Source: Bdellovibrionota bacterium
Lineage (GTDB): Bacteria; Bdellovibrionota; FAC87; UBA2466; JACKAF01
NCBI GenBank assembly: GCA_041751875.1
Contig: JBGSIC010000018.1
Span: forward strand, 32,723-96,722
Length of the DNA: 64,000 nt
Reading direction: 5' to 3'
The notes under the pieces are model-generated. The model was not told where the DNA came from and searched no databases. It saw only the letters and a list, made by a program, of their open reading frames with translations. Positions 3,669 to 61,660 of this stretch are shown here, piece by piece. Both the position numbers and the translations under genes were made by a program. Every line of letters begins with the position of its first letter. Within the stretch, counting starts at the first letter, position 1.

Positions 3669-4943
3669 ATGACCCCGATTGTCCTTTTTTCCATCGTGTG
3701 CATTTGTGTTTTGGTCGCTGCCTTTTTCTCCGCGGCAGAAACGGCGCTTCTTCGGCTTCGTTCCGATGAAATCGACTCGGACATCAAAACGGCCAGCGGT
3801 CCTGGTGCGGTTGCCGCCCGAAACCTACTGAGCTCCACGTCCCGCCTCTTGGTTACTATTCTCTTGGGAAACAATATTGTTAACAGCCTGGGGGCGGCCT
3901 GTGCGTCGGCTTTGGCTATCTACTATTTAGGCGAAACCAACGGCATCTTGGTCGCCACGGTTGTCATGACCCTGGTGATGTTTCTTTTTGCCGAAGTGTT
4001 ACCCAAAGCTGTTGCCGCAAGCAGCCCAAAGCCAGTGGCTTACATGGTTTCTTTACCCCTCTACCTTTTTCACCATTCCTTATTTTTCGTGCACATTCTG
4101 TTCGACAAGCTCGTGGATCCCATCGTGAAACGCTTGGTGGGAACGGGAAACCCGGCGATTGATTCCTCCGAAGAAGTGTTGCGCATGGCTCGTCGCTTGC
4201 GTGATGACGGAGCGGAAGGAACGCCGGCGGCGATCATTGCCGCCACTGCCGGAGCCGCGGATATGAACGTCGGCGAGATCATGATTCCGCGCACAGAAAT
4301 TGTGGCCTTTTCAGATAAAACGCCGGTCGATGAGCTTCTTGACCGTTTGGTCGAAGAAGCCCACACGCGCGCACCCATTTATGAGGATACACTCGACAAC
4401 ATTTTAGGCATTGTGCACATCAAGGATTTGATTGCGATGGTGCGCGCGAAGAAAACAGACCTACGACGGATTCTTAAACCTGTGCTCCGCGTTCCCGAAC
4501 GCAAACCTATTTTGCGCCTCCTTGAAGATATGCAGCATGCCTTTTGTCACATGGCTTTAGTGAAAGACGAGTTCGGCGTGACGTTGGGCTTGATCACCCA
4601 AGAAGATATTTTGGAAGAAATTGTCGGTGAAATTCGTGACGAGTTTGACAAAGAAGAACTCGAAACCATTCAGCAGCGGGAAGACGGCAGCTACGAAGTG
4701 CTCGGTCGCGTTTCTGTTTTGGATTTCAACCGCGAAACCGGGATGGAAATTGAAGCCGAAAAAGGCGACACCCTAAGTGGACTCGTTTTCAACCGTTTAG
4801 GCCGCGCTCCGCGACCGCGTGATGAAGTGAGAGTGGGCGATTACGTGCTCTCTGTTGCCCGCATGGCTGGTACCCGAATTGCCTGGGTGAAGGTAAGTAA
4901 GGATTCGCACGAGGGGCGCGACGAAACTAGCGAAACGGCCTAG
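3669..4943 (+). CDS. CNNM/TlyC/CorC-family membrane protein (DUF21 TM domain + CBS pair + CorC_HlyC)
   Basis: 424 aa. N-terminal multi-TM region, then a CBS pair (IMIPRTEIVAF...), then a C-terminal CorC/HlyC-type domain (TLSGLVFNRLGRAPRPRDEV). Confidence 0.8.
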   Translation: MTPIVLFSIVCICVLVAAFFSAAETALLRLRSDEIDSDIKTASGPGAVAARNLLSSTSRLLVTILLGNNIVNSLGAACASALAIYYLGETNGILVATVVMTLVMFLFAEVLPKAVAASSPKPVAYMVSLPLYLFHHSLFFVHILFDKLVDPIVKRLVGTGNPAIDSSEEVLRMARRLRDDGAEGTPAAIIAATAGAADMNVGEIMIPRTEIVAFSDKTPVDELLDRLVEEAHTRAPIYEDTLDNILGIVHIKDLIAMVRAKKTDLRRILKPVLRVPERKPILRLLEDMQHAFCHMALVKDEFGVTLGLITQEDILEEIVGEIRDEFDKEELETIQQREDGSYEVLGRVSVLDFNRETGMEIEAEKGDTLSGLVFNRLGRAPRPRDEVRVGDYVLSVARMAGTRIAWVKVSKDSHEGRDETSETA

Positions 4944-38652: not shown

Positions 38653-39681
38653 ATGAAAACCGTTTTAGTGACTGGTGCCGGCGGATATATCGGCACGATG
38701 ATAGTCGAGCGTCTGTTGGAAGAAAATTATAAAGTTATTGGCGTCGACAGATACTTCTTTGGGAAAGAGTTGTTAGGGGAATCACGGCAACACGAAAATT
38801 TCAGTCTTCTTCAGAAAGACAACCGCAAGCTGACGGTTGAGGATTTCAAGGATGTCGATGCGGTGATTGATCTTGCTGGGTTGTCGAACGATCCCACCGC
38901 TGAATTGTCTCCGACACTTGCTTGGAGCATCAACTATGAGGGCGGGGTTCACACCGCAAAAATGGCGAAGGCCGCCGGAGTGAAACGCTTTCTCTACTCT
39001 TCGTCGTGTTCGGTTTACGGAACAGGACAAGCACTTTGTCTGGACGAGAGTTCCGAACCCAATCCCGCTACCGTTTATGCAGAAACCAAAGTTCAGGTGG
39101 AAAAGGAACTCGCGAAAATCCAGTCTTCGGACTTTGAAGTGGTTGTGCTGCGCAATGCGACAGTTTATGGCTTGTCCAAACGCATGCGTTTTGACCTGGT
39201 GATCAATCTGATGTCACTCACCGCGTGGCGTGATGGAAAGATTGTGATCATGGGAGGCGGAAAACAGTGGCGCCCCGTCGTGCATATTCGCGATGTGGCG
39301 GAAGCCTTTCTTATTTGTTTGGAAGCCGCAAGCGAAAAAGTCGCGGGACAAGTGTTTAATGTTGGCTCCGACGATCAGAACTATCAAATTTTTCAGCTCG
39401 CCTACATGATAAAGTCGGTGTTCCCAGGCTGTGAAATCATCACAGCGCCTGATGACGCCGACAAGCGAACTTACAATGTCAGCTTCAAGAAAATTCAGAA
39501 AGAGCTGAATTTCATTGCGACGATGACTCCGCTGGCGAGTGCCAATGAACTTAAAGTGGCGCTCACGATGGGGCGGATCGATATTTCTGATTCTCGCCTA
39601 AACACTTTGAAGTACTACCAACACCTCCTGAAGGTGCAGGAACTTTTTAAGGAACTCGCCGAAGATGGAAAAATTATCTAA
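38653..39681 (+). CDS. NAD-dependent epimerase/dehydratase (extended SDR)
   Basis: TGAGGYIG Rossmann motif. The YxxxK catalytic pair is expected. ATG at 38653. Confidence 0.8.
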   Translation: MKTVLVTGAGGYIGTMIVERLLEENYKVIGVDRYFFGKELLGESRQHENFSLLQKDNRKLTVEDFKDVDAVIDLAGLSNDPTAELSPTLAWSINYEGGVHTAKMAKAAGVKRFLYSSSCSVYGTGQALCLDESSEPNPATVYAETKVQVEKELAKIQSSDFEVVVLRNATVYGLSKRMRFDLVINLMSLTAWRDGKIVIMGGGKQWRPVVHIRDVAEAFLICLEAASEKVAGQVFNVGSDDQNYQIFQLAYMIKSVFPGCEIITAPDDADKRTYNVSFKKIQKELNFIATMTPLASANELKVALTMGRIDISDSRLNTLKYYQHLLKVQELFKELAEDGKII

Positions 39682-40852
39682 AAGATCCGTCCCCTTTTTT
39701 AAGCATAATCTCCAGGAAGAAGATTTTCTGGAGCTGCAAGATACTCTTAAAAGCGTCTTTCTCACCACGGGTCCAAAGACCAAACGTTTTGAAGAACAGC
39801 TTGCCTCCTATTTAGGAGCAAAACATGGCATCGCCTGTACCAGTTGGACCACCGCTGCTTTTTTGGTGCTAAAGGCCTGGGGGATTGGGCCCGGTGACGA
39901 AGTCATTGTACCGGCGCTAACCTTTATAGCGACTCCCAACATTGTTCTTCACTGTGGCGCCAAGCCGGTCTTTGTCGATTCGGAAGCCCTCACAGGCAAC
40001 ATTGACGTGGAACAGATTGAGAAAGCGATTACTCCGGATACCAAGGCCATCATTCCCGTTCATCTTTATGGACAAATGGTGGACATGGAGAAACTTTCGG
40101 CGATTGCGAAAAAACACAAACTTAAAGTGTTGGAAGACTGTGCGCATTGTATTGAAGGTACGCGGGATGGCTATCGCCCAGGGCAAAAAAGCGACGCTGC
40201 TTGTTTTAGTTTCTACGCCACCAAAAACATTACCTGTGGTGAAGGTGGGGCGATTGTGACGTCTGACTCCGAGCTCAATGAAAAGGTGCGCCTGCTTAGA
40301 CTTCACGGAATGAGTCTGTCGGCAAGCGATCGTTATACAAGCACCTACAAACACTGGGACATGCTCGCTCTGGGATACAAAGCGAATCTCTCTGATATCC
40401 AATCAGCGCTCTTGATTCATCAGCTCGAGCGCATCGACACGGTATTGAAGAAAAAGGAAGAGCTCTGCCAGTTTTATGAAAAGAAACTTTCTGCCGCGGG
40501 TGTTCCGTTCCCGAAGGTGCTACCGGGTAGCCAGTCGGCACGGCATCTATTTACTTTCTGGGCACCACGGGGAAAAAGAGACGAAATGCTTACCGGCTTG
40601 CAAGAAGCGGGCATTGGTGTGGCGGTGAACTTTCGTTCGGTGCCCACCCTGAAGTTTTATCGAGAACGTTACGGTTACGGGCCGGGCAAATTTCCTGTAG
40701 CGGAGAAAATAGGGGAGCAAACCATTACGGTTCCGATGTATGTTTCTTTGAGTCAGGAAGACGCCAGCTACGTGGCGGATCAAATCATTGCGCTGTACAA
40801 GCGCCTTCAGCCTCAGCCTGCCTCAAGCGGAGAATTAACCGCTTCACTCTAG
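39665..40852 (+). CDS. DegT/DnrJ/EryC1/StrS-family PLP-dependent sugar aminotransferase (ArnB/GnnB/WbpE-like)
   Basis: Family pattern ...SFYATKNITCGEGG... with PLP-Lys in ATKN. Confidence 0.85.
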   Translation: MEKLSKRSVPFFKHNLQEEDFLELQDTLKSVFLTTGPKTKRFEEQLASYLGAKHGIACTSWTTAAFLVLKAWGIGPGDEVIVPALTFIATPNIVLHCGAKPVFVDSEALTGNIDVEQIEKAITPDTKAIIPVHLYGQMVDMEKLSAIAKKHKLKVLEDCAHCIEGTRDGYRPGQKSDAACFSFYATKNITCGEGGAIVTSDSELNEKVRLLRLHGMSLSASDRYTSTYKHWDMLALGYKANLSDIQSALLIHQLERIDTVLKKKEELCQFYEKKLSAAGVPFPKVLPGSQSARHLFTFWAPRGKRDEMLTGLQEAGIGVAVNFRSVPTLKFYRERYGYGPGKFPVAEKIGEQTITVPMYVSLSQEDASYVADQIIALYKRLQPQPASSGELTASL

Positions 40853-40856
40853 GTTC

Positions 40857-40878
40857 TAAAACGTGCCAGGCACCTTTT
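40857..40878. terminator. weak bidirectional terminator hairpin AAAA-CGTGCC-A-GGCACC-TTTT between convergent genes
   Basis: 5-bp GC stem flanked by an A-run and a T-run. The sequence is related to the intergenic repeat family. Confidence 0.3.
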
Positions 40879-40882
40879 GGAA

Positions 40883-41971
40883 CTAGCTGGCTAGTTTGGT
40901 TTGGGTGGGATCCGTTTTGGGATCGTTGATGGTCGGGTGACCGCCCAAGGGTTCGAGCGGTAAGGGCACCCAACATTGCTGGGTGTGTGCGAGCTTATCT
41001 GCTTGCTCCAAAATTCTCACCACACGTAAGCCCTGATAGCCATCCGTGCGCGGGGCAACCCCTTTTTGCAAGCAAGATACCATGTGGTTCACTTCGATTC
41101 GAAGAGCCTCAGTTTGATCTATCGCCGGTGAGTAGACATCGCCGTGGCGGTACTTAATGTAGTCCACGTAGCTTTTCTCTTTGTCAGCGGTTTCCAGCGC
41201 GTCCACACCTTTGTCGAATACCTTTATTTTCTGCACGACATCCACATCGTCGTACACAACCATCTTTTTCCGACCAGTCAAAACCGTGCGACGGATTTTC
41301 GAGGGCGACAACCAACTTGCGTGAATCGAAGCAATGAAGTTGTTTTGGTAGTTTAGGTGCATAAAGCCGATATCGGGTTGCGGCAAGCGAGCTGCGTTTT
41401 TCGCCGAAACTGAGATCTCAATCGGATCGTAGGGAATGAGTTCATTGAGAATGGAAAGATCATGCGCCATGAGATCAAAAATAACACTGATGTCCGGTTG
41501 ATAGAGGCCTAGGTTCATGCGCTCCGATTCGTAATAAAGGAGGTCGCCCAAGTCTTTCTTCTTCACCATCTCCTTCATGTAGGCAACAGCGGGGTGGTAC
41601 ACGTAGGTGTGGTCCACCATGAGCATCTTTTTTCGACGCTGGGCTTCTTCAATCAGATAAAGACTTTCCTTTTCCGTCGCCGTCATCGGCTTGGTAATCA
41701 AAAGATGTTTGTCGGCCTTAAGCGCTTTCATACCCAACGCGAAATGACTATGGACGGGAGTGGCGATGACAATCAGGTCGAGATGCGTGTCTTCAAAAAG
41801 ATCGTCGGCGCGCGTCGTGGTACGCACGGAAGGGTAACGTTGGCCTAGCTTTGCCAAACGTTTGGTGTCGAGGTCACACATCCACAAAACTTTCATGTCC
41901 TCGTTCTCGAAGAGGTTTCTAAGTAAGTTGGGACCCCAGTAGCCTATACCGATGATGCCGGCGCGTATCAT
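40883..41971 (-). CDS. Gfo/Idh/MocA-family NAD(P) oxidoreductase (GnnA/WbpB-like sugar dehydrogenase candidate)
   Basis: GIIGIGYWGPNLLRNL Rossmann N-terminus. 362 aa. Confidence 0.8.
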   Translation of the reverse strand: MIRAGIIGIGYWGPNLLRNLFENEDMKVLWMCDLDTKRLAKLGQRYPSVRTTTRADDLFEDTHLDLIVIATPVHSHFALGMKALKADKHLLITKPMTATEKESLYLIEEAQRRKKMLMVDHTYVYHPAVAYMKEMVKKKDLGDLLYYESERMNLGLYQPDISVIFDLMAHDLSILNELIPYDPIEISVSAKNAARLPQPDIGFMHLNYQNNFIASIHASWLSPSKIRRTVLTGRKKMVVYDDVDVVQKIKVFDKGVDALETADKEKSYVDYIKYRHGDVYSPAIDQTEALRIEVNHMVSCLQKGVAPRTDGYQGLRVVRILEQADKLAHTQQCWVPLPLEPLGGHPTINDPKTDPTQTKLAS

Positions 41972-54000: not shown

Positions 54001-56523
54001 ATGATCCAGACTCTCGCTAAAAAAGTTTTTGGCAGCGCCAATGAGCGCTACGTAAAGCGCCTGCGTCCCTTGCTTGAACAGATCGCAGGCTATGAAAGCC
54101 AACTGCAAACCCTTTCCTCGGAGCAACTCGCCGCAAAAACGGTGAGCTTTCGTGAAAAGTTGCAGAGTGGTGCTACGCTCAACGATATTTTGCCTGAGGC
54201 ATTTGCGGTAGTACGTGAAACCTCTCAACGCGTTCTGGGAATGCGTCATTTCGACGTTCAGCTTATTGGCGGGATTGTGCTTCACGAAGGCAAAGTTGCC
54301 GAAATGAAGACCGGTGAAGGCAAGACTCTCATGGCCACCCTCCCGGTTTACCTCAACGCGCTCGCCGGGCTCGGTGTGCACGTGGTCACCGTCAACGATT
54401 ATCTCGCTAAACGTGACAGCGAATGGATGGGCCAGGTTTATCAGGCTCTGGGTTTGACGGTCGGTTGCATTGTTCATGGCCTTAACGATCGGCAGCGCCG
54501 TGAGAGTTATGCGGCTGACGTTACCTATGGCACGAATAACGAATTTGGTTTTGATTATCTGCGCGACAACATGAAGTTTCGCTTGGAAGACTACGTCCAG
54601 CGCGAACTCAACTACTGCATTGTCGATGAAGTGGATTCCATTTTAATTGATGAGGCGCGCACGCCCTTGATCATTAGTGGGCCTACGGAAGATTCCACCG
54701 ACAAGTACTACATCATCAACGCGATTTTACCGGGCCTGAAGAAAGAAGAAGATTTTACGATTGAAGAGAAGTCGCGAACAAGCGCTCTGACCGAAGCGGG
54801 TGTCGGCAAAGTGGAAAAAGCCCTTCGCGTGGATAACTTGTACGCGCCGGAAAATATTGAGTTAGTTCATCACGTTCACCAAGCCTTAAAGGCCCATGCC
54901 ATTTTCAAGCGCGATGTGGATTACGTAGTGAAAGATGGCCAGGTAATCATCGTTGATGAATTTACCGGTCGTCTTATGCCGGGCCGTCGCTATAGTGATG
55001 GACTCCACCAGGCGCTCGAAGCCAAAGAGAACGTCAAAATTGAGAACGAGAACCAGACACTCGCAACGATAACGTTCCAGAACTATTTTCGCATGTACAA
55101 AAAGTTGTCTGGCATGACGGGTACCGCCGATACCGAAGCGGCTGAATTCCAGAAAATTTACAATCTAGAAGTGATGGTGATTCCCACCAACCGGCCCATG
55201 GTGCGCCAAGATCATGCGGATGTGGTGTACAAGAACGAAGCAGCGAAGTTGCGTGCCATAGCCAAAGAAATTCAGGAAATGCAGCAAAAAGGGCAACCGG
55301 TTTTGGTTGGTACCACTTCCATCGAGAAGTCTGAACGCTTAAGTGAAGTGCTGAAACGCACGGGCGTGCAGCACCACGTACTAAACGCGAAGCAACATGA
55401 GCGCGAAGCAGAAATTGTCGCGAACGCGGGACAGAAGGGCTCGGTAACGATTGCCACTGCGATGGCTGGTCGCGGAACGGACATTGTGCTTGGCGAGGGC
55501 GTGGCTCAGATGGGCGGCCTACATATTATCGGAAACGAACGACACGAATCGCGACGCATCGATAATCAGTTCCGAGGGCGATCGGGTCGTCAGGGAGACC
55601 CTGGCTCCAGCCGTTTTTACCTCTCATTGGAAGATGACCTTTTGCGTATTTTCCAGGGTGAAAAAATTAAAGGTTACATGGAACGCTTCAATATGGAGGA
55701 GGACGTCCCCATTGAGTCGAAGCTGATTTCACGCGCGATTGAAAACGCGCAAAAGAAAGTAGAATCTCACAACTTCGATATTCGTAAGCATCTCCTCGAA
55801 TATGACGATGTGCTCAATAAGCAGCGTGAGGTCGTATACGAGCTGCGAAAACTTATTCTTTCGGGACAAAACACACGCGCGCTTATTTTGGACATTATTC
55901 GGGAGCAGGTAGATGGCGTGGTCGGAACCTTCGCTTCTACGAAGCTCAAAGCGGAGTGGGATCTTAAGGGACTTACCGAGACACTGCAGTTTTTGTTCGA
56001 CAATGATCTGGGACTTGCTGCCGGAGCGCCGGACCAAGTAGAAAACTCGGATCAATTTGCGGATTGGATCTACGAGCAAGGAGTCAAAGCGTACGAAGCG
56101 CGAGAGCAGTCGATGACTCCCGACGTGATGCGCCAGCTCGAAGAGTGGGTTTATTTGGGTACGATTGACCAGTTGTGGAAGGATCACCTTCTCAACATGG
56201 ATCACCTCAAAGAAGGCGTGGGGCTTCGGGGCTACGGGCAAAAAGATCCTTTGGTCGAATACAAGAAAGAGGGGTTTGAGCTCTTTAAGCTGATGGACGA
56301 GCAGGTTAAAACTGACGTCCTTAGCAAACTGTTCCGTGTTCAGGTGAATCGGCAAGAACAGGTGGAAGACCTGCAGCCCAAAGAACAAAAAATGACCCTT
56401 TCTCGTGGCGAAGCTGCGGGTAGCGCTGAGGCGCCAACCCGTCGACAGGATGAAAAAGTGGGTCGCAATGATCCGTGTCCGTGCGGTAGCGGCAAAAAAT
56501 TTAAAAAGTGTCACGGGGCCTAA
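54001..56523 (+). CDS. secA: preprotein translocase ATPase SecA
   Basis: 840 aa. DEAD-like motor motifs ([27 protein letters not shown]). C-terminal zinc finger [14 protein letters not shown]. Confidence 0.95.
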
Positions 56524-56525
56524 CA

Positions 56526-57266
56526 GTGGATTCCATTTGCCCTAAATGCCTCAGCCAGTTGCAACACGAAGAAGGCATGAGCAATGTCACGTGTCAGGTC
56601 TGCGGGACGCAGTATGATCCGCGAGAGGAAACAGGTGATCTGCCTCCGTTGGATATGGCTTTCACCCGAGAAGAGAGCAGCGAGGAAGTTTCGCACGCGG
56701 CAGGCCTTCGCACCCCTCTGAACGAACTCCCCACCAATGAGGGCGATAGCGGCGATTTTGAGGAAGTAAAGCTACCTGCCATTGATAACGCGATGGACGA
56801 GATGGAGAGCGAGAACCTGCCTCCCGTAGATGAACTCGACCCGTTTAGTCAGGGCGACAAGGCTAAAGATTTTCAACAGAGCGAATCGGTGTTCGAAGAA
56901 CTTCGTAATTTTGGCGAATCTCTCCAAGAAGACGAAGAGGATATTGAGAAAACCAATCCGACGCAGGGGTCAGCAAAGTTGCCCCAATCCCCTGCTGCAC
57001 CGAAGGCAAGTGGTGGCGGACTCGCGATGACATCGGCCCCTGTTCTCCAGGGGTTTAAGATTGGCCATTATTTCACACCCGTTTCCCTTTCAGCCGCGGT
57101 GAAAAGGGATGCCGAAGAACCTCTCAAAGAGGCGTTTGGTAAATTCAATCAGAAAGTCTCAGAAACGGGCGCAAACGCCGTGGTCGATCTCAAATGGAAT
57201 TTATCGGGAGACGGCTCCAAGGTTTTGATTTGCGGAACGCCCGTGAAATGCGTTAAGGAGAGCTAG
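56526..57266 (+). CDS. zinc-ribbon plus UPF0145/YbjQ-like domain protein
   Basis: CPKC...CQVC ribbon, acidic linker, and C-terminal ...GANAVVDLKWNLSGDGSKVLICGTPVKC resembling the YbjQ fold. GTG starts at 56508 or 56526, abutting the secA stop. Confidence 0.55.
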   Translation: MDSICPKCLSQLQHEEGMSNVTCQVCGTQYDPREETGDLPPLDMAFTREESSEEVSHAAGLRTPLNELPTNEGDSGDFEEVKLPAIDNAMDEMESENLPPVDELDPFSQGDKAKDFQQSESVFEELRNFGESLQEDEEDIEKTNPTQGSAKLPQSPAAPKASGGGLAMTSAPVLQGFKIGHYFTPVSLSAAVKRDAEEPLKEAFGKFNQKVSETGANAVVDLKWNLSGDGSKVLICGTPVKCVKES

Positions 57267-57375
57267 GCCAGGTGCCTGCTGTCTGAAAAAGTGCCAGGTC
57301 ACTTTCCGTACTTCGTCCGGAAAGTGCACAGGCACCTTTTCCGAAACGGCTGGCACCTTTTCCCAAAGGTGTAGC
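57267..57375. repeat. palindromic intergenic repeat element, copy A (about 90 bp)
   Basis: About 85 % identical to the reverse complement of 60931..61025. Internal hairpin CACTTTCCG-N9-CGGAAAGTG and direct repeat GGCACCTTTTCC x2. Confidence 0.6.
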
Positions 57376-57430
57376 TCTGAAACCACGCACCCCCGATCTC
57401 CGTCCTCTTACTTCCCGAGCGCTTACCAGT

Positions 57431-57892
57431 GTGATGGATACCCTACGTGCCGAGTTTCCCGGCACTCATGTGCTCGACCTTTACAGCGGAAAAGGCCGAT
57501 TTGGTTTCGGGGCGCTTGAGGAGGGAGCCAAGCGTGTTAGCTTCGTGGAAAAAAGTCCCAACGAGGCAGAAACACTAAAAAAGGAAGGGAAGAAATGGGC
57601 TGAAGGGTGCCGTGTGTTTTCAAACGATGTGTTTGCGTACCTTCACCGCGCGAAGGAAGAAAACTCTGTTTTCGATATTGTATTTGCCGATCCGCCGTTC
57701 CGCTTGTGGGAAGGTAAGTATTCGGAAGAATTGGTGAATGCGGTTCTGCCGGTGCTAAAGAAGCCGGCAATTTTTCTTGTGAGACACCCTAAGAAGGTGG
57801 TAGTTTCCTTTGCGATTCCGGCCTTGGAGGAGTGGAAAACTTCGATTTTTGGGGACTCCAAGCTGATTTATTTTTCCCATGTAGGTGGTTAG
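57431..57892 (+). CDS. rsmD: 16S rRNA (guanine966-N2)-methyltransferase RsmD (apparently 5'-truncated)
   Basis: VLDLYSGKGRFGFGALEEGA...DIVFADPPF match RsmD motifs. The in-frame upstream sequence (57365-57430) encodes the RsmD-like KGVALKPRTPDLRPLTSR but has no start codon, and further upstream is the repeat element. Confidence 0.7.
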   Translation: MMDTLRAEFPGTHVLDLYSGKGRFGFGALEEGAKRVSFVEKSPNEAETLKKEGKKWAEGCRVFSNDVFAYLHRAKEENSVFDIVFADPPFRLWEGKYSEELVNAVLPVLKKPAIFLVRHPKKVVVSFAIPALEEWKTSIFGDSKLIYFSHVGG

Positions 57893-58371
57893 TGTCTCGC
57901 GTTGCGGTTTATCCAGGAACTTTTGATCCCATCACAAACGGTCACGTTGATCTCGTAAACCGGGCTCTGACCGTTTTTGATAAAGTCATCATTCTCGTCG
58001 CGCATTCTGGCAAAAAGACACCCCTCTTTGACCCCAAAACCCGTATGGAGCTCATTCGAGAGTGCTTTCCCGGCAACGGTCGTATCGAGGTCGATCAATA
58101 CGAAGGACTTTTGGTCGACTACGCCAAGAAAAAAAATATTCTTACTGTGTTACGCGGGCTTCGTGCCGTTTCAGATTTTGAGTACGAATTTCAAATGTCG
58201 ACGATCAATCGGCGCATGTACCCACAGATGCAAACCTTTCTTCTTATGGCATCGGAGAATTATTTTTTCGTCAATTCTACCTTGGTGAAGGAAGTTCTTT
58301 CTCACGGAGGGGATATTTCGGAAATGGTTCCCGCACACGTGAATCAGAAACTGAAGGAAAAATTATGTTGA
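57892..58371 (+). CDS. coaD: phosphopantetheine adenylyltransferase
   Basis: GTG start overlaps the rsmD TAG (TAGTG) after an AGGTGG SD. MSRVAVYPGTFDPITNGH matches the CoaD N-terminus. Confidence 0.9.
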   Translation: MSRVAVYPGTFDPITNGHVDLVNRALTVFDKVIILVAHSGKKTPLFDPKTRMELIRECFPGNGRIEVDQYEGLLVDYAKKKNILTVLRGLRAVSDFEYEFQMSTINRRMYPQMQTFLLMASENYFFVNSTLVKEVLSHGGDISEMVPAHVNQKLKEKLC

Positions 58372-60930: not shown

Positions 60931-61025
60931 ATTGTCTTCGAAGCGAAGGTGCCTGTCTACTTTTGGAAGGTGTCTGTGCACTTTCGGGACGAAGTACCGA
61001 AAGTGACCTGACACCTTTCCGGTCT
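60931..61025. repeat. palindromic intergenic repeat element, copy B (inverted relative to copy A)
   Basis: Lies between two outer-membrane protein genes. Hairpin CACTTTCGGG-N8-CCGAAAGTG. Confidence 0.6.
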
Positions 61026-61660
61026 TAGAACTGAAAGGTAAGCGCCAGCCCACCGAAGAATCCCGACAGATCAAAATCCGCGGCGCCCGCGAGGTAGGGA
61101 GCGCCACCATTGTTCAGTGCGCCCAGATTGGCGAAGCGGTAGCCTGCGTAGAAAGCAAAAGAATGAAGACTACTAAAATGAATCCCCAGTTGGACGCGAG
61201 CGAAATACGCAAGCGGAGAGGTGACGGGAGAAAAAGTCCCCGTGGTGCTCTGAATTTCCGCATTGAGTGGATAATTTAGCCCCGCACTAAAGAGGAAATA
61301 CATGCGGTCCCGTTCTTTAAGAAAACCAATTTCCCCCCCCACGGTTTGGTAGTTCAGCGTGTCTTCTTGAACGGGTCCTCCTGTCATAAAGACCCGTTTG
61401 GCGAGCCAGTGATCAAAATTTAAGGTAAGGAGCCAATTGCGATAAAGCAAAACTCCGATGCCTCCACCGACCACAAAGCCTTCGCTAAATTTTGTCGTGT
61501 ACGTCGCTCCCGAATCGTTGTCCGCCGCCGACGAGGTGAGCGGGAACTCTCCCCGTAGCTGCACCACCCATTGGAAGTCCTTGGTCGGCTTCCTCCAACG
61601 GGCATGGGCCTCCCCGGGAACGAAAAGGAAAACCGCCATAATAAGGACAAAAAAGCGCAT
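61025..61660 (-). CDS. small outer-membrane beta-barrel protein (OmpA-like/OmpW-like, hypothetical)
   Basis: Signal peptide MRFFVLIMAVFLFVPGEAHA. Alternating strands. C-terminal ...LTFQF. Confidence 0.5.
   Translation of the reverse strand: MRFFVLIMAVFLFVPGEAHARWRKPTKDFQWVVQLRGEFPLTSSAADNDSGATYTTKFSEGFVVGGGIGVLLYRNWLLTLNFDHWLAKRVFMTGGPVQEDTLNYQTVGGEIGFLKERDRMYFLFSAGLNYPLNAEIQSTTGTFSPVTSPLAYFARVQLGIHFSSLHSFAFYAGYRFANLGALNNGGAPYLAGAADFDLSGFFGGLALTFQF

Follow-up and report, generated by a model that had tools for sequence, protein, structure and literature searches.

Insertions of repetitive extragenic palindromes (REPs), of their REPIN doublets, or of miniature inverted-repeat transposable elements (MITEs) at gene boundaries, where they alter translation signals, are well known, and the bacterial MITEs that alter neighboring genes include the Neisseria Correia elements, ERIC/IRU, RUP/BOX, and the Rickettsia palindromic elements. 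REP doublets form hairpins that are mobilized by RAYT transposases (PMC3116915, PMC3337134). At gene boundaries translated by termination-reinitiation, coupling is almost abolished at an intergenic distance of ~20 nucleotides (nt) (PMC10666635), and initiation at the near-cognate codon CUG in Escherichia coli reaches ~1–2% (range 0.02–3%) of that at AUG (bioRxiv 10.1101/063800). Here, we describe a small palindromic repeat that lies on the junction between a conserved uncharacterized gene and rsmD, the gene for an RsmD-family methyltransferase, in a Bdellovibrionota genome (contig JBGSIC010000018.1); "the window" denotes the whole 64,000-nt stretch of this contig that was analyzed.

A palindromic, hairpin-forming repeat of ~93–111 nt occupies what was once a translationally coupled stop/start junction of the upstream gene and a short-form rsmD. 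The upstream gene still ends normally, and the rsmD coding sequence is complete back to a CTG codon at 57377, with the termination-reinitiation coupling of rsmD to the upstream gene presumably lost. We propose how rsmD is now translated: low-level initiation at CUG 57377, via an AGGUG Shine-Dalgarno (SD) sequence 5 nt upstream, would then yield a complete protein of 171 amino acids (aa) that keeps the PDLRPxTxRAL segment. We regard this low-level production of the complete protein from CUG 57377 as an evenly balanced proposition, and the evidence for and against it is given below.

The rsmD Reading Frame Has No Canonical Start Before Its Conserved Motif

The features of the frame are as follows:

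57377–57892, plus strand: RsmD-family methyltransferase frame, counted with CUG as the probable start, of 171 codons and a TAG (PF03602, 83.8 bits)
57431–57436, plus strand: first canonical start codons, GTG 57431 and ATG 57434; the public annotation (P0001, 152 aa) uses ATG 57434
57365–57371, plus strand: SD-like AAAGGTG, the AGGTG core of which ends 5 nt before CTG 57377
57377–57380, plus strand: CTGA, with CTG in the rsmD frame and TGA in the frame of the upstream gene (by position modulo three)

Direct reading and translation place the upstream limit of the open rsmD frame at TGA 57284–57286, a genuine stop in the source genome since coaD itself ends in TGA, and 48 sense codons lie between this stop and GTG 57431. 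A codon scan of the rsmD frame from 57287 to the RP codon (the start of the conserved Arg-Pro pair, 57401) returned no ATG, GTG, TTG, ATT, ATC, or ATA; the only near-cognate codons before the RP codon are CTG 57350 and CTG 57377. In translation, codons 57401–57430 (RPLTSRALTS) likewise contain no start codon. Codons 57365–57430 translate as KGVALKPRTPDLRPLTSRALTS, followed by GTG 57431 and ATG 57434, which correspond to residues 19 and 20 of a CUG-started protein. The initial annotation, made from the DNA letters, had listed only these two CTG codons and no ATG, GTG, or TTG upstream, as reading, translation, and codon scan agree; its further claim, that initiation could only be non-canonical (at CTG) or truncated, is borne out by a conserved N-terminal motif with no canonical start 5′ of it. 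Two other GTG codons were considered and rejected as starts: GTG 57369 is out of frame and directly followed by TAG, and GTG 57272 is in frame but meets a TGA three codons later. The rest of the rsmD frame keeps every invariant motif, with no frameshift and no internal stop.

The Upstream Codons Encode a Conserved RsmD-Family N-Terminus

A significant RsmD N-terminal match, TPDLRPLTSRALTSV, is encoded upstream of the annotated start. Inclusion of the upstream codons raises the PF03602 (Cons_hypoth95) score from 73.9 to 83.8 bits, above the gathering cut-off of 24, and shifts the start of the match from profile position 34 to 16; the TIGR00095 score likewise increases from 68.6 to 78.1 bits. 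Because the latter remains below the TIGR00095 equivalog cut-off (117.5 bits), the label "RsmD family" is justified, while the exact m2G966 specificity is not. By BLASTP, the 23 upstream codons match the ortholog P0006 at 14 of 16 positions (E = 3e-8), and the alignments to solved RsmD-family structures (1WS6, 3P9N, 2IFT, 2FHP, and 2FPO) start at the LRP motif. The S-adenosylmethionine (SAM)-binding and catalytic motifs, defined as DxFxGxG and DPPF/Y (PMC1874633), are present as DLYSGKG and ADPPF, in columns that are invariant in alignments of 25 and 32 sequences. The 18 codons from the CTG to the annotated start fit every position of the clade consensus (PDLRPxTxRALxS), the R and P of which are conserved in at least 90% of 32 family members, canonical RsmDs included.

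An AlphaFold2 model of the 171-aa form (predicted local distance difference test, pLDDT, 92.7) places helix alpha-1 at residues 13–26. The annotated Val/Met (residues 19 and 20) fall in the middle of this helix, so a product of 152–153 aa would lack both the conserved motif and half of helix alpha-1. The top Foldseek matches of the model are 6m1c, 2esr, 2fhp, 2fpo, and 3p9n (E down to 6e-14, template modeling, TM, score up to 0.84); the best structural matches are the RsmD structures 6m1c, 2fpo, and 3p9n (TM 0.82–0.84), in agreement with a Rossmann-type RsmD fold.

The nearest relatives of the window RsmD are 41–55% identical and come from metagenome-assembled genomes of Bdellovibrionales/Bdellovibrionaceae type. 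In canonical Bdellovibrio and Fluviispira genes, MRIIGGKYKG stands 21–22 codons before RP. The N-terminal beta-hairpin block (MRIIGG..KG..L) is absent before the RPT motif in the window gene and in all members of its clade, whose proteins start 7–23 codons before the RP of PDLRPxTxRAL. In a neighbor-joining tree, the window gene lies inside this short-form clade, beside P0002–P0004, P0005, P0006, and P0009, and the short N-terminus is therefore ancestral in the window lineage. Lack of the hairpin block is common to the whole clade and hence the usual state in this lineage, rather than an effect of the element; the proposal in the initial annotation that the repeat had removed or replaced an MRIIGG...KG coding end is thus not supported. 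Alignment with related rsmD loci gives a divided answer to the question raised there of whether a short N-terminus without the RPT motif is the normal lineage form: the orthologs are indeed short at the N-terminus, yet the RP(T) motif is retained in them.

The suggested likeness of the upstream codons to the RsmD N-terminal block is similarly upheld in part. From about codon 57386 onward it is supported by the gains in hidden Markov model (HMM) score and by BLASTP, but the equation of KGVAL with the KGRxL part finds no support, as this segment lies outside the HMM alignments and the block is missing from the clade. An actinobacterial RsmD (P0034) has an identical KGVAL, equally spaced. That the window's KGVAL descends from the canonical KGxxL strand was considered and rejected, given that the gene nests in a clade without the block, and the likeness to KGRxL is, as judged from these sequence comparisons, a coincidence. 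Overall, rsmD has lost its start codon but has kept its coding end.

The clade itself comprises Bdellovibrionota RsmD-family proteins of 166–186 aa (P0002–P0025) that lack the N-terminal MRIIGG..KG hairpin, unlike the RsmDs of Bdellovibrio. A broad contig search with the DPPF pattern, which is too general, gave mostly distant RsmDs, along with the canonical Bdellovibrio MRIIGG genes.

Syntenic Relatives Have No Spacer at the Junction

Two features of the plus strand frame the comparison with relatives:

56508–57266, plus strand: conserved uncharacterized gene between secA and rsmD, with its TAG stop at 57264–57266
57255–57260, plus strand: AAGGAG within the last codons (K-E) of this gene, seen by direct reading; relatives are purine-rich at the same place

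Eleven syntenic loci were compared (L001, L005, L006, L008, L010, and L091–L096). Wherever the contig reaches, the order is secA, a gene of unknown function (~195–264 aa), rsmD, coaD, and a class I/II aminotransferase gene, and an Omp85 gene is next on the opposite strand in several of the loci. In all eleven, rsmD begins with a TTG, GTG, or ATG that either overlaps the upstream stop or lies next to it:

L001: TAATG
L006 and L094: TTGA overlap
L091 and L096: GTGA overlap
L005, L010, L093, and L095: TTG within the last codons of the upstream gene
L092: TTG 5 nt past the stop
L008: ATG further inside the upstream gene

Overlaps other than TTGA, GTGA, and TAATG span 16–46 nt. By gene calls or an in-frame codon scan, TTG is the start in seven of the eleven relatives, and CTG in none of them. 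The distance from the upstream stop to the RP codon is 11–50 nt in every relative versus 134 nt in the window, and the excess of 84–123 nt agrees with the size of the palindromic element. This comparison confirms the earlier placement of the repeat at the 5′ junction of rsmD, where the eleven relatives have no spacer.

The C-terminus of the upstream protein is intact in the window (GTPVKCVKES*, against GTPVQCAKAE* and GTPVRCTKEGL*, with 10 relatives compared). Purine-rich AAGAAGG or AAAGG sequences stand just before the overlapped rsmD starts of relatives. From its position, the AAGGAG at 57255–57260 is probably the ancestral SD of rsmD, now ~116 nt from the start position.

The public products P0022 (L094, 1965–2001), P0020 (L095, 494–557), and P0013 (L096, 682–706) start at a downstream ATG. 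The overlapped TTG or GTG codons 9–10 codons before RP are probably the real starts of these three, and the public products mis-started like that of the window.

The Palindromic Repeat Is Present in Two Copies

The repeat occurs in the window as follows:

57267–57359, plus strand: copy A, palindromic repeat with nested inverted AGGTGCC/GGCACCT arms and a core hairpin at 57295–57338
57259–57378, plus strand: full palindrome of copy A, from the ViennaRNA fold of 57230–57420
60946–61018, minus strand: copy B, in the same orientation relative to transcription as copy A

The arms take the forms AAAGGTGYCAGGTCACTTTC and GAAAGTGCACAGRCACCTT. The right limit of copy A (57359) is the last base that it has in common with copy B, which diverges after GGCACCTT; the insertion itself may reach 57374–57377. 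The segment 57360–57376, with its AAAGGTG, is thus outside the part shared by the two copies, and the AAAGGTG heptamer occurs 20 times in the window. Beyond the shared part, copy A is flanked by AGAGCTA (57259–65) and TAGCTCT (57372–78), a perfectly complementary 7-bp inverted repeat that copy B lacks. In the predicted fold, the stem thus extends across the upstream stop codon on one side and the first two bases of CTG 57377 on the other.

The copies lie ~3.6 kb apart and have diverged by 10–17%: the core of copy B (60967–61018) is 90% identical to copy A over 52 nt, and the identity over 75 nt is 83%. The RNA hairpin of copy A is predicted at −57.2 kcal/mol (z = −6.2 versus shuffles). Between the stems of the two copies, three pairs are compensated on both sides, one is a GU/GC change, and none is broken; because every difference keeps pairing, the hairpin is maintained. 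Both copies begin 0–6 nt past the stop of a gene and precede a co-directional gene, copy B starting 6 nt after the TAA (61025–61027) of a 211-aa gene and lying upstream of an Omp85-family gene. The 211-aa gene (61025–61660, minus strand) has no Pfam match. For the Omp85 gene, ATG 60905 (MLRRVV..., signal-peptide-like) is a more likely start than GTG 60922, which is listed as the start of the open reading frame.

In the frame of the upstream gene, the element is open: 35 sense codons are bracketed by TAG 57264 and TAG 57372, followed by CTC TGA. The bracketing TAG codons therefore set the length of the insert to a multiple of three (108 or 111 nt). Elsewhere in the window, AAAACGTGCCAGGCACCTTTTGG is found at 40858–40880, in the 30-nt gap between the convergent genes 39665–40852 (plus) and 40883–41971 (minus); it resembles two element arms joined without the central hairpin. 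Such a sequence could be a remnant or a minimal form, or else a palindrome to which a protein binds.

Searches for known signals or relatives of the element returned little. Rfam 15 gave only sub-threshold eukaryotic microRNA hairpin models (21.7 and 17.3 bits, against gathering thresholds of 84 and 98). A scan for a terminator consensus found no site at the element, where the arms are followed by only four Ts in copy A and by no T-tract in copy B, and a promoter scan found nothing there. A sigma-54 −24/−12 reading of CTGGCACC was rejected by eye, as no TTGC stands at the right spacing. The element core pattern had no matches in public genome contigs or in metagenome contigs (the source genome is absent from both), a looser arm pattern with a variable loop had none in metagenome contigs, and the element had no match among the 96 fetched loci.

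CTG 57377 Occupies the Ancestral Start Position

Three properties identify CTG 57377 as the ancestral start position. It is followed by AAA, as are the TTG or GTG starts of L006, L094, and L096; it lies 8 codons before RP, as does the Met of P0006 (LKPRTPDLRP versus MIKKTPDLRP); and it forms CTGA, with TGA in the frame of the upstream gene. NTGA overlaps occur in four relatives (L006, L094, L091, and L096), and the CTGA at 57377–57380, now 110 nt from the upstream stop, resembles what an NTGA or TAGTG overlap of start and stop would leave behind. On this sequence comparison, at most the start codon has been lost from rsmD, and no coding sequence is missing.

Several histories of the insertion can be drawn. 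The most parsimonious, as one event suffices, starts from a TAGTG junction with the AAGGAG SD 5 nt upstream, into which 111 nt were inserted between G and TG, converting GTG to CTG; the TAGTG arrangement is still found between rsmD and coaD in the window. An insertion of 111 nt into the final codons of an upstream gene whose end read ...KESL*, at an NTGA overlap, with a separate change to CTG, also fits. So does an insertion of 108 nt with duplication of TAG, or of 93 nt just past the stop, accompanied by a separate point change or by an ancestral CTG. The junction before insertion would fit AAGGAGAGCTAGTGAAACC if the insertion destroyed a GTG start, TTGAAACC if T changed to C later, and CTGAAACC if the start was CTG from the beginning.

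How rsmD May Be Translated Now

With an insert of 110 nt, coupling to the upstream gene is expected to be lost, because gaps of ~20 nt already almost abolish it, and the weak TTG starts of the relatives presumably rely on such coupling. At CTG 57377, the predicted SD duplex with a generic anti-SD has an energy of −6.5 kcal/mol at ideal spacing, compared with −2.2 kcal/mol for GTG 57431/ATG 57434 and −4.8 to −10 kcal/mol for neighboring genes. A hypomorphic rsmD allele would be tolerable, given that deletion of E. coli yhhF (rsmD) has almost no phenotype (PMC1874633).

Several observations weigh against translation from this CTG. An SD as good as that of CTG 57377 is found at ~20% of random positions. 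CUG starts are rare in bacteria. In the ViennaRNA prediction, the SD and the CUG are partly buried, with unpaired probabilities of 0.40 and 0.34 in free RNA, and the SD has an unpaired probability of 0.00 with a ribosome on the upstream stop. The N-terminal segment could be intact because the insertion is very recent, and not because translation has continued, and a base-call error at one position is possible. Finally, no relative above 55% protein identity and no copy of the element beyond the window was found that would fix the exact insertion boundaries, any target duplication, or the ancestral start codon.

The main rival reading, possible though we consider it unlikely, is that rsmD has been effectively inactivated by a recent insertion, and is a young pseudogene or a severe hypomorph. 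Any initiation would then be at GTG 57431 or ATG 57434, the only canonical starts and the site of the public annotation (P0001), and the 152–153-aa product would lack the RP...R segment as well as helix alpha-1 up to its middle. Both the near-absence of a phenotype in the E. coli deletion and the inefficiency of CUG as a start in a partly structured SD/CUG region are consistent with this alternative. However, there is no SD before 57431/57434, the remaining gene keeps every invariant motif free of frameshifts and stops, and the 18 upstream codons keep all clade-consensus residues although the element copies have diverged; that divergence weakly disfavors a very recent insertion. The downstream-ATG annotation carries little weight here, as the ATG calls for P0013, P0020, and P0022 probably overlook an overlapped GTG or TTG in the same way.

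An improbable explanation is that the CTG stems from faulty sequencing or assembly, or represents a minority variant, so that a true TTG, GTG, or ATG stands at 57377 and the element merely lies in the rsmD 5′ leader. A single base separates CTG from TTG, the start in most of the relatives, and the source is apparently a draft assembly, with a contig of 187 kb; but the sequence shows no sign of an error, the frame on either side is clean, and an assembled consensus generally contains few false substitutions. We give slightly less credence to the idea that CTG was already the rsmD start before the element arrived, a weak start upheld by termination-reinitiation at CTGA, and that the element, entering the final codons of the upstream gene or the DNA directly past its stop, had no part in the loss of a canonical start. 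Deletion of 57264–57374 (111 nt) does restore ...K E S L * with a CTGA overlap, giving the same C-terminal length as KEGL* (L006) and KEGT* (L094); TGA 57378 is in the frame of the upstream gene, and the clade habitually has weak TTG starts at overlaps. Against this, none of the eleven relatives uses CTG, and in the loci compared this history looks the same as the other insertion scenarios. Very improbable is a loop-out device akin to shunting or bypassing, in which the 7-bp AGAGCUA/UAGCUCU basal helix of the modeled hairpin would bring the upstream UAG next to CUG 57377 and let the ribosome reinitiate across the ~110-nt insert, which, if true, would be a structure-mediated long-range termination-reinitiation that restores a coupling broken in the linear sequence.

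Two further routes into rsmD were considered and rejected. Read-through of the upstream TAG would enter a different frame, and TGA 57284 blocks that of rsmD; a bypass in the style of T4 gene 60, from AGC-UAG (57261–66) to AGC (57373–75), would resume in the wrong frame. With CUG initiation still the preferred reading, the RsmD-family enzyme is probably made weakly or as a crippled short form.

Neighboring Genes

The gene downstream of rsmD is:

57892–58371, plus strand: coaD, phosphopantetheine adenylyltransferase (PF01467, 77.6 bits)

At 57890–57894, TAGTG combines the rsmD stop with the coaD start, the tight arrangement that the initial annotation had described. The SD of coaD has a computed energy of −10 kcal/mol (for 57874–57893, offset two bases from the GTG). 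With its own strong SD, and an element that has no terminator U-tract, coaD should still be expressed.

The uncharacterized gene upstream (56508–57266) has no Pfam match; its true start may lie a few codons downstream of 56508. The protein carries CxxC...CxxC at its N-terminus, is acidic and of low complexity in the middle, and has a conserved C-terminal domain that ends in GTPVxC; it shares 39% identity with the syntenic protein of L001 (264 aa, E = 3e-50). A gene of this type is always found between secA and rsmD (e.g., L001, 2207–3001), with its stop overlapping or abutting the rsmD start, and this conserved arrangement hints at a functional link between the two genes.

Significance

The main value of these observations is the correction of annotation: the public 152-aa product is probably mis-started, and likewise P0013, P0020, and P0022. 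A clade of Bdellovibrionota RsmD-family proteins without the N-terminal hairpin is also flagged, for which G966 is a putative target. The locus shows a small palindromic repeat on an overlapping stop/start junction, which would uncouple two genes and leaves the downstream gene without a canonical start. If CUG initiation is true, the insertion of a repeat would here have created or exposed a CUG start that bacteria use in nature. The kind of event, in which a repeat disturbs the start of a gene, is ordinary, and would be no strong surprise to a specialist.

Comparison with Known Systems

The window protein shares with RsmD (YhhF), the 16S rRNA m2G966 methyltransferase (2FPO, 3P9N/6M1C), its fold, the DxYxGxG and DPPF motifs, and the RPxxxR N-terminal motif; its gene shares an operon with coaD, as in all syntenic relatives examined. 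Canonical RsmD, in contrast, has an N-terminal beta-hairpin (MRIIGG..KG) that the whole clade of the window gene lacks.

Termination-reinitiation is known at 4-nt and 1-nt overlaps (PMC6728339, PMC10666635), of which the relatives have TTGA, GTGA, and TAATG, and the window keeps the rsmD-coaD TAGTG and the apparent CTGA relic. Unlike in those systems, the overlap in the window is broken by ~110 nt, far beyond ~20 nt. As for near-cognate CUG initiation (bioRxiv 10.1101/063800), the window offers a candidate, a CUG that lies in the rsmD frame where the ancestral gene started and has an optimally spaced SD; E. coli reporters give CUG just 0.02–3% of AUG.

Regarding repeat families, the element differs from REPs and REPINs in that only two copies and one possible arm-only remnant (40858–40880) occur in 64 kb, in that no RAYT was detected in the window and no sequence match in Rfam or public collections, with the conserved GTAG end not established, and in that copy A has an extra outer arm absent from copy B. 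The RAYT search was a crude tblastn with a partial Y1_Tnp fragment of L094, a weak test on a 64-kb window, and gave no match. In L094, a Y1_Tnp gene (4172–4486; PF01797, the family including RAYTs) stands directly downstream of the secA-rsmD-coaD-aminotransferase block, and no counterpart was seen in the window. From bacterial MITEs the element differs in having no demonstrable terminal inverted repeats common to both copies and no unambiguous target-site duplication; possible duplications, the short direct repeats AGCT or TAG, are seen in copy A and not in copy B. Like such MITEs, it is small, non-coding, and palindromic, is inserted where one gene meets the next, and appears to change the translation signals of the adjacent gene; it is also open in the frame of the upstream gene and flanked by TAG codons. 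Like a REPIN, it has two units of ~22 nt, inverted relative to each other and separated by a short spacer, which fold into a long imperfect hairpin. Its place is extragenic, right after a stop and between co-directional genes, and it is present in more than one copy, with its stem kept by compensatory changes. Judged from its sequence, the architecture of the element appears closest to REPIN/REP doublets or to a small MITE.

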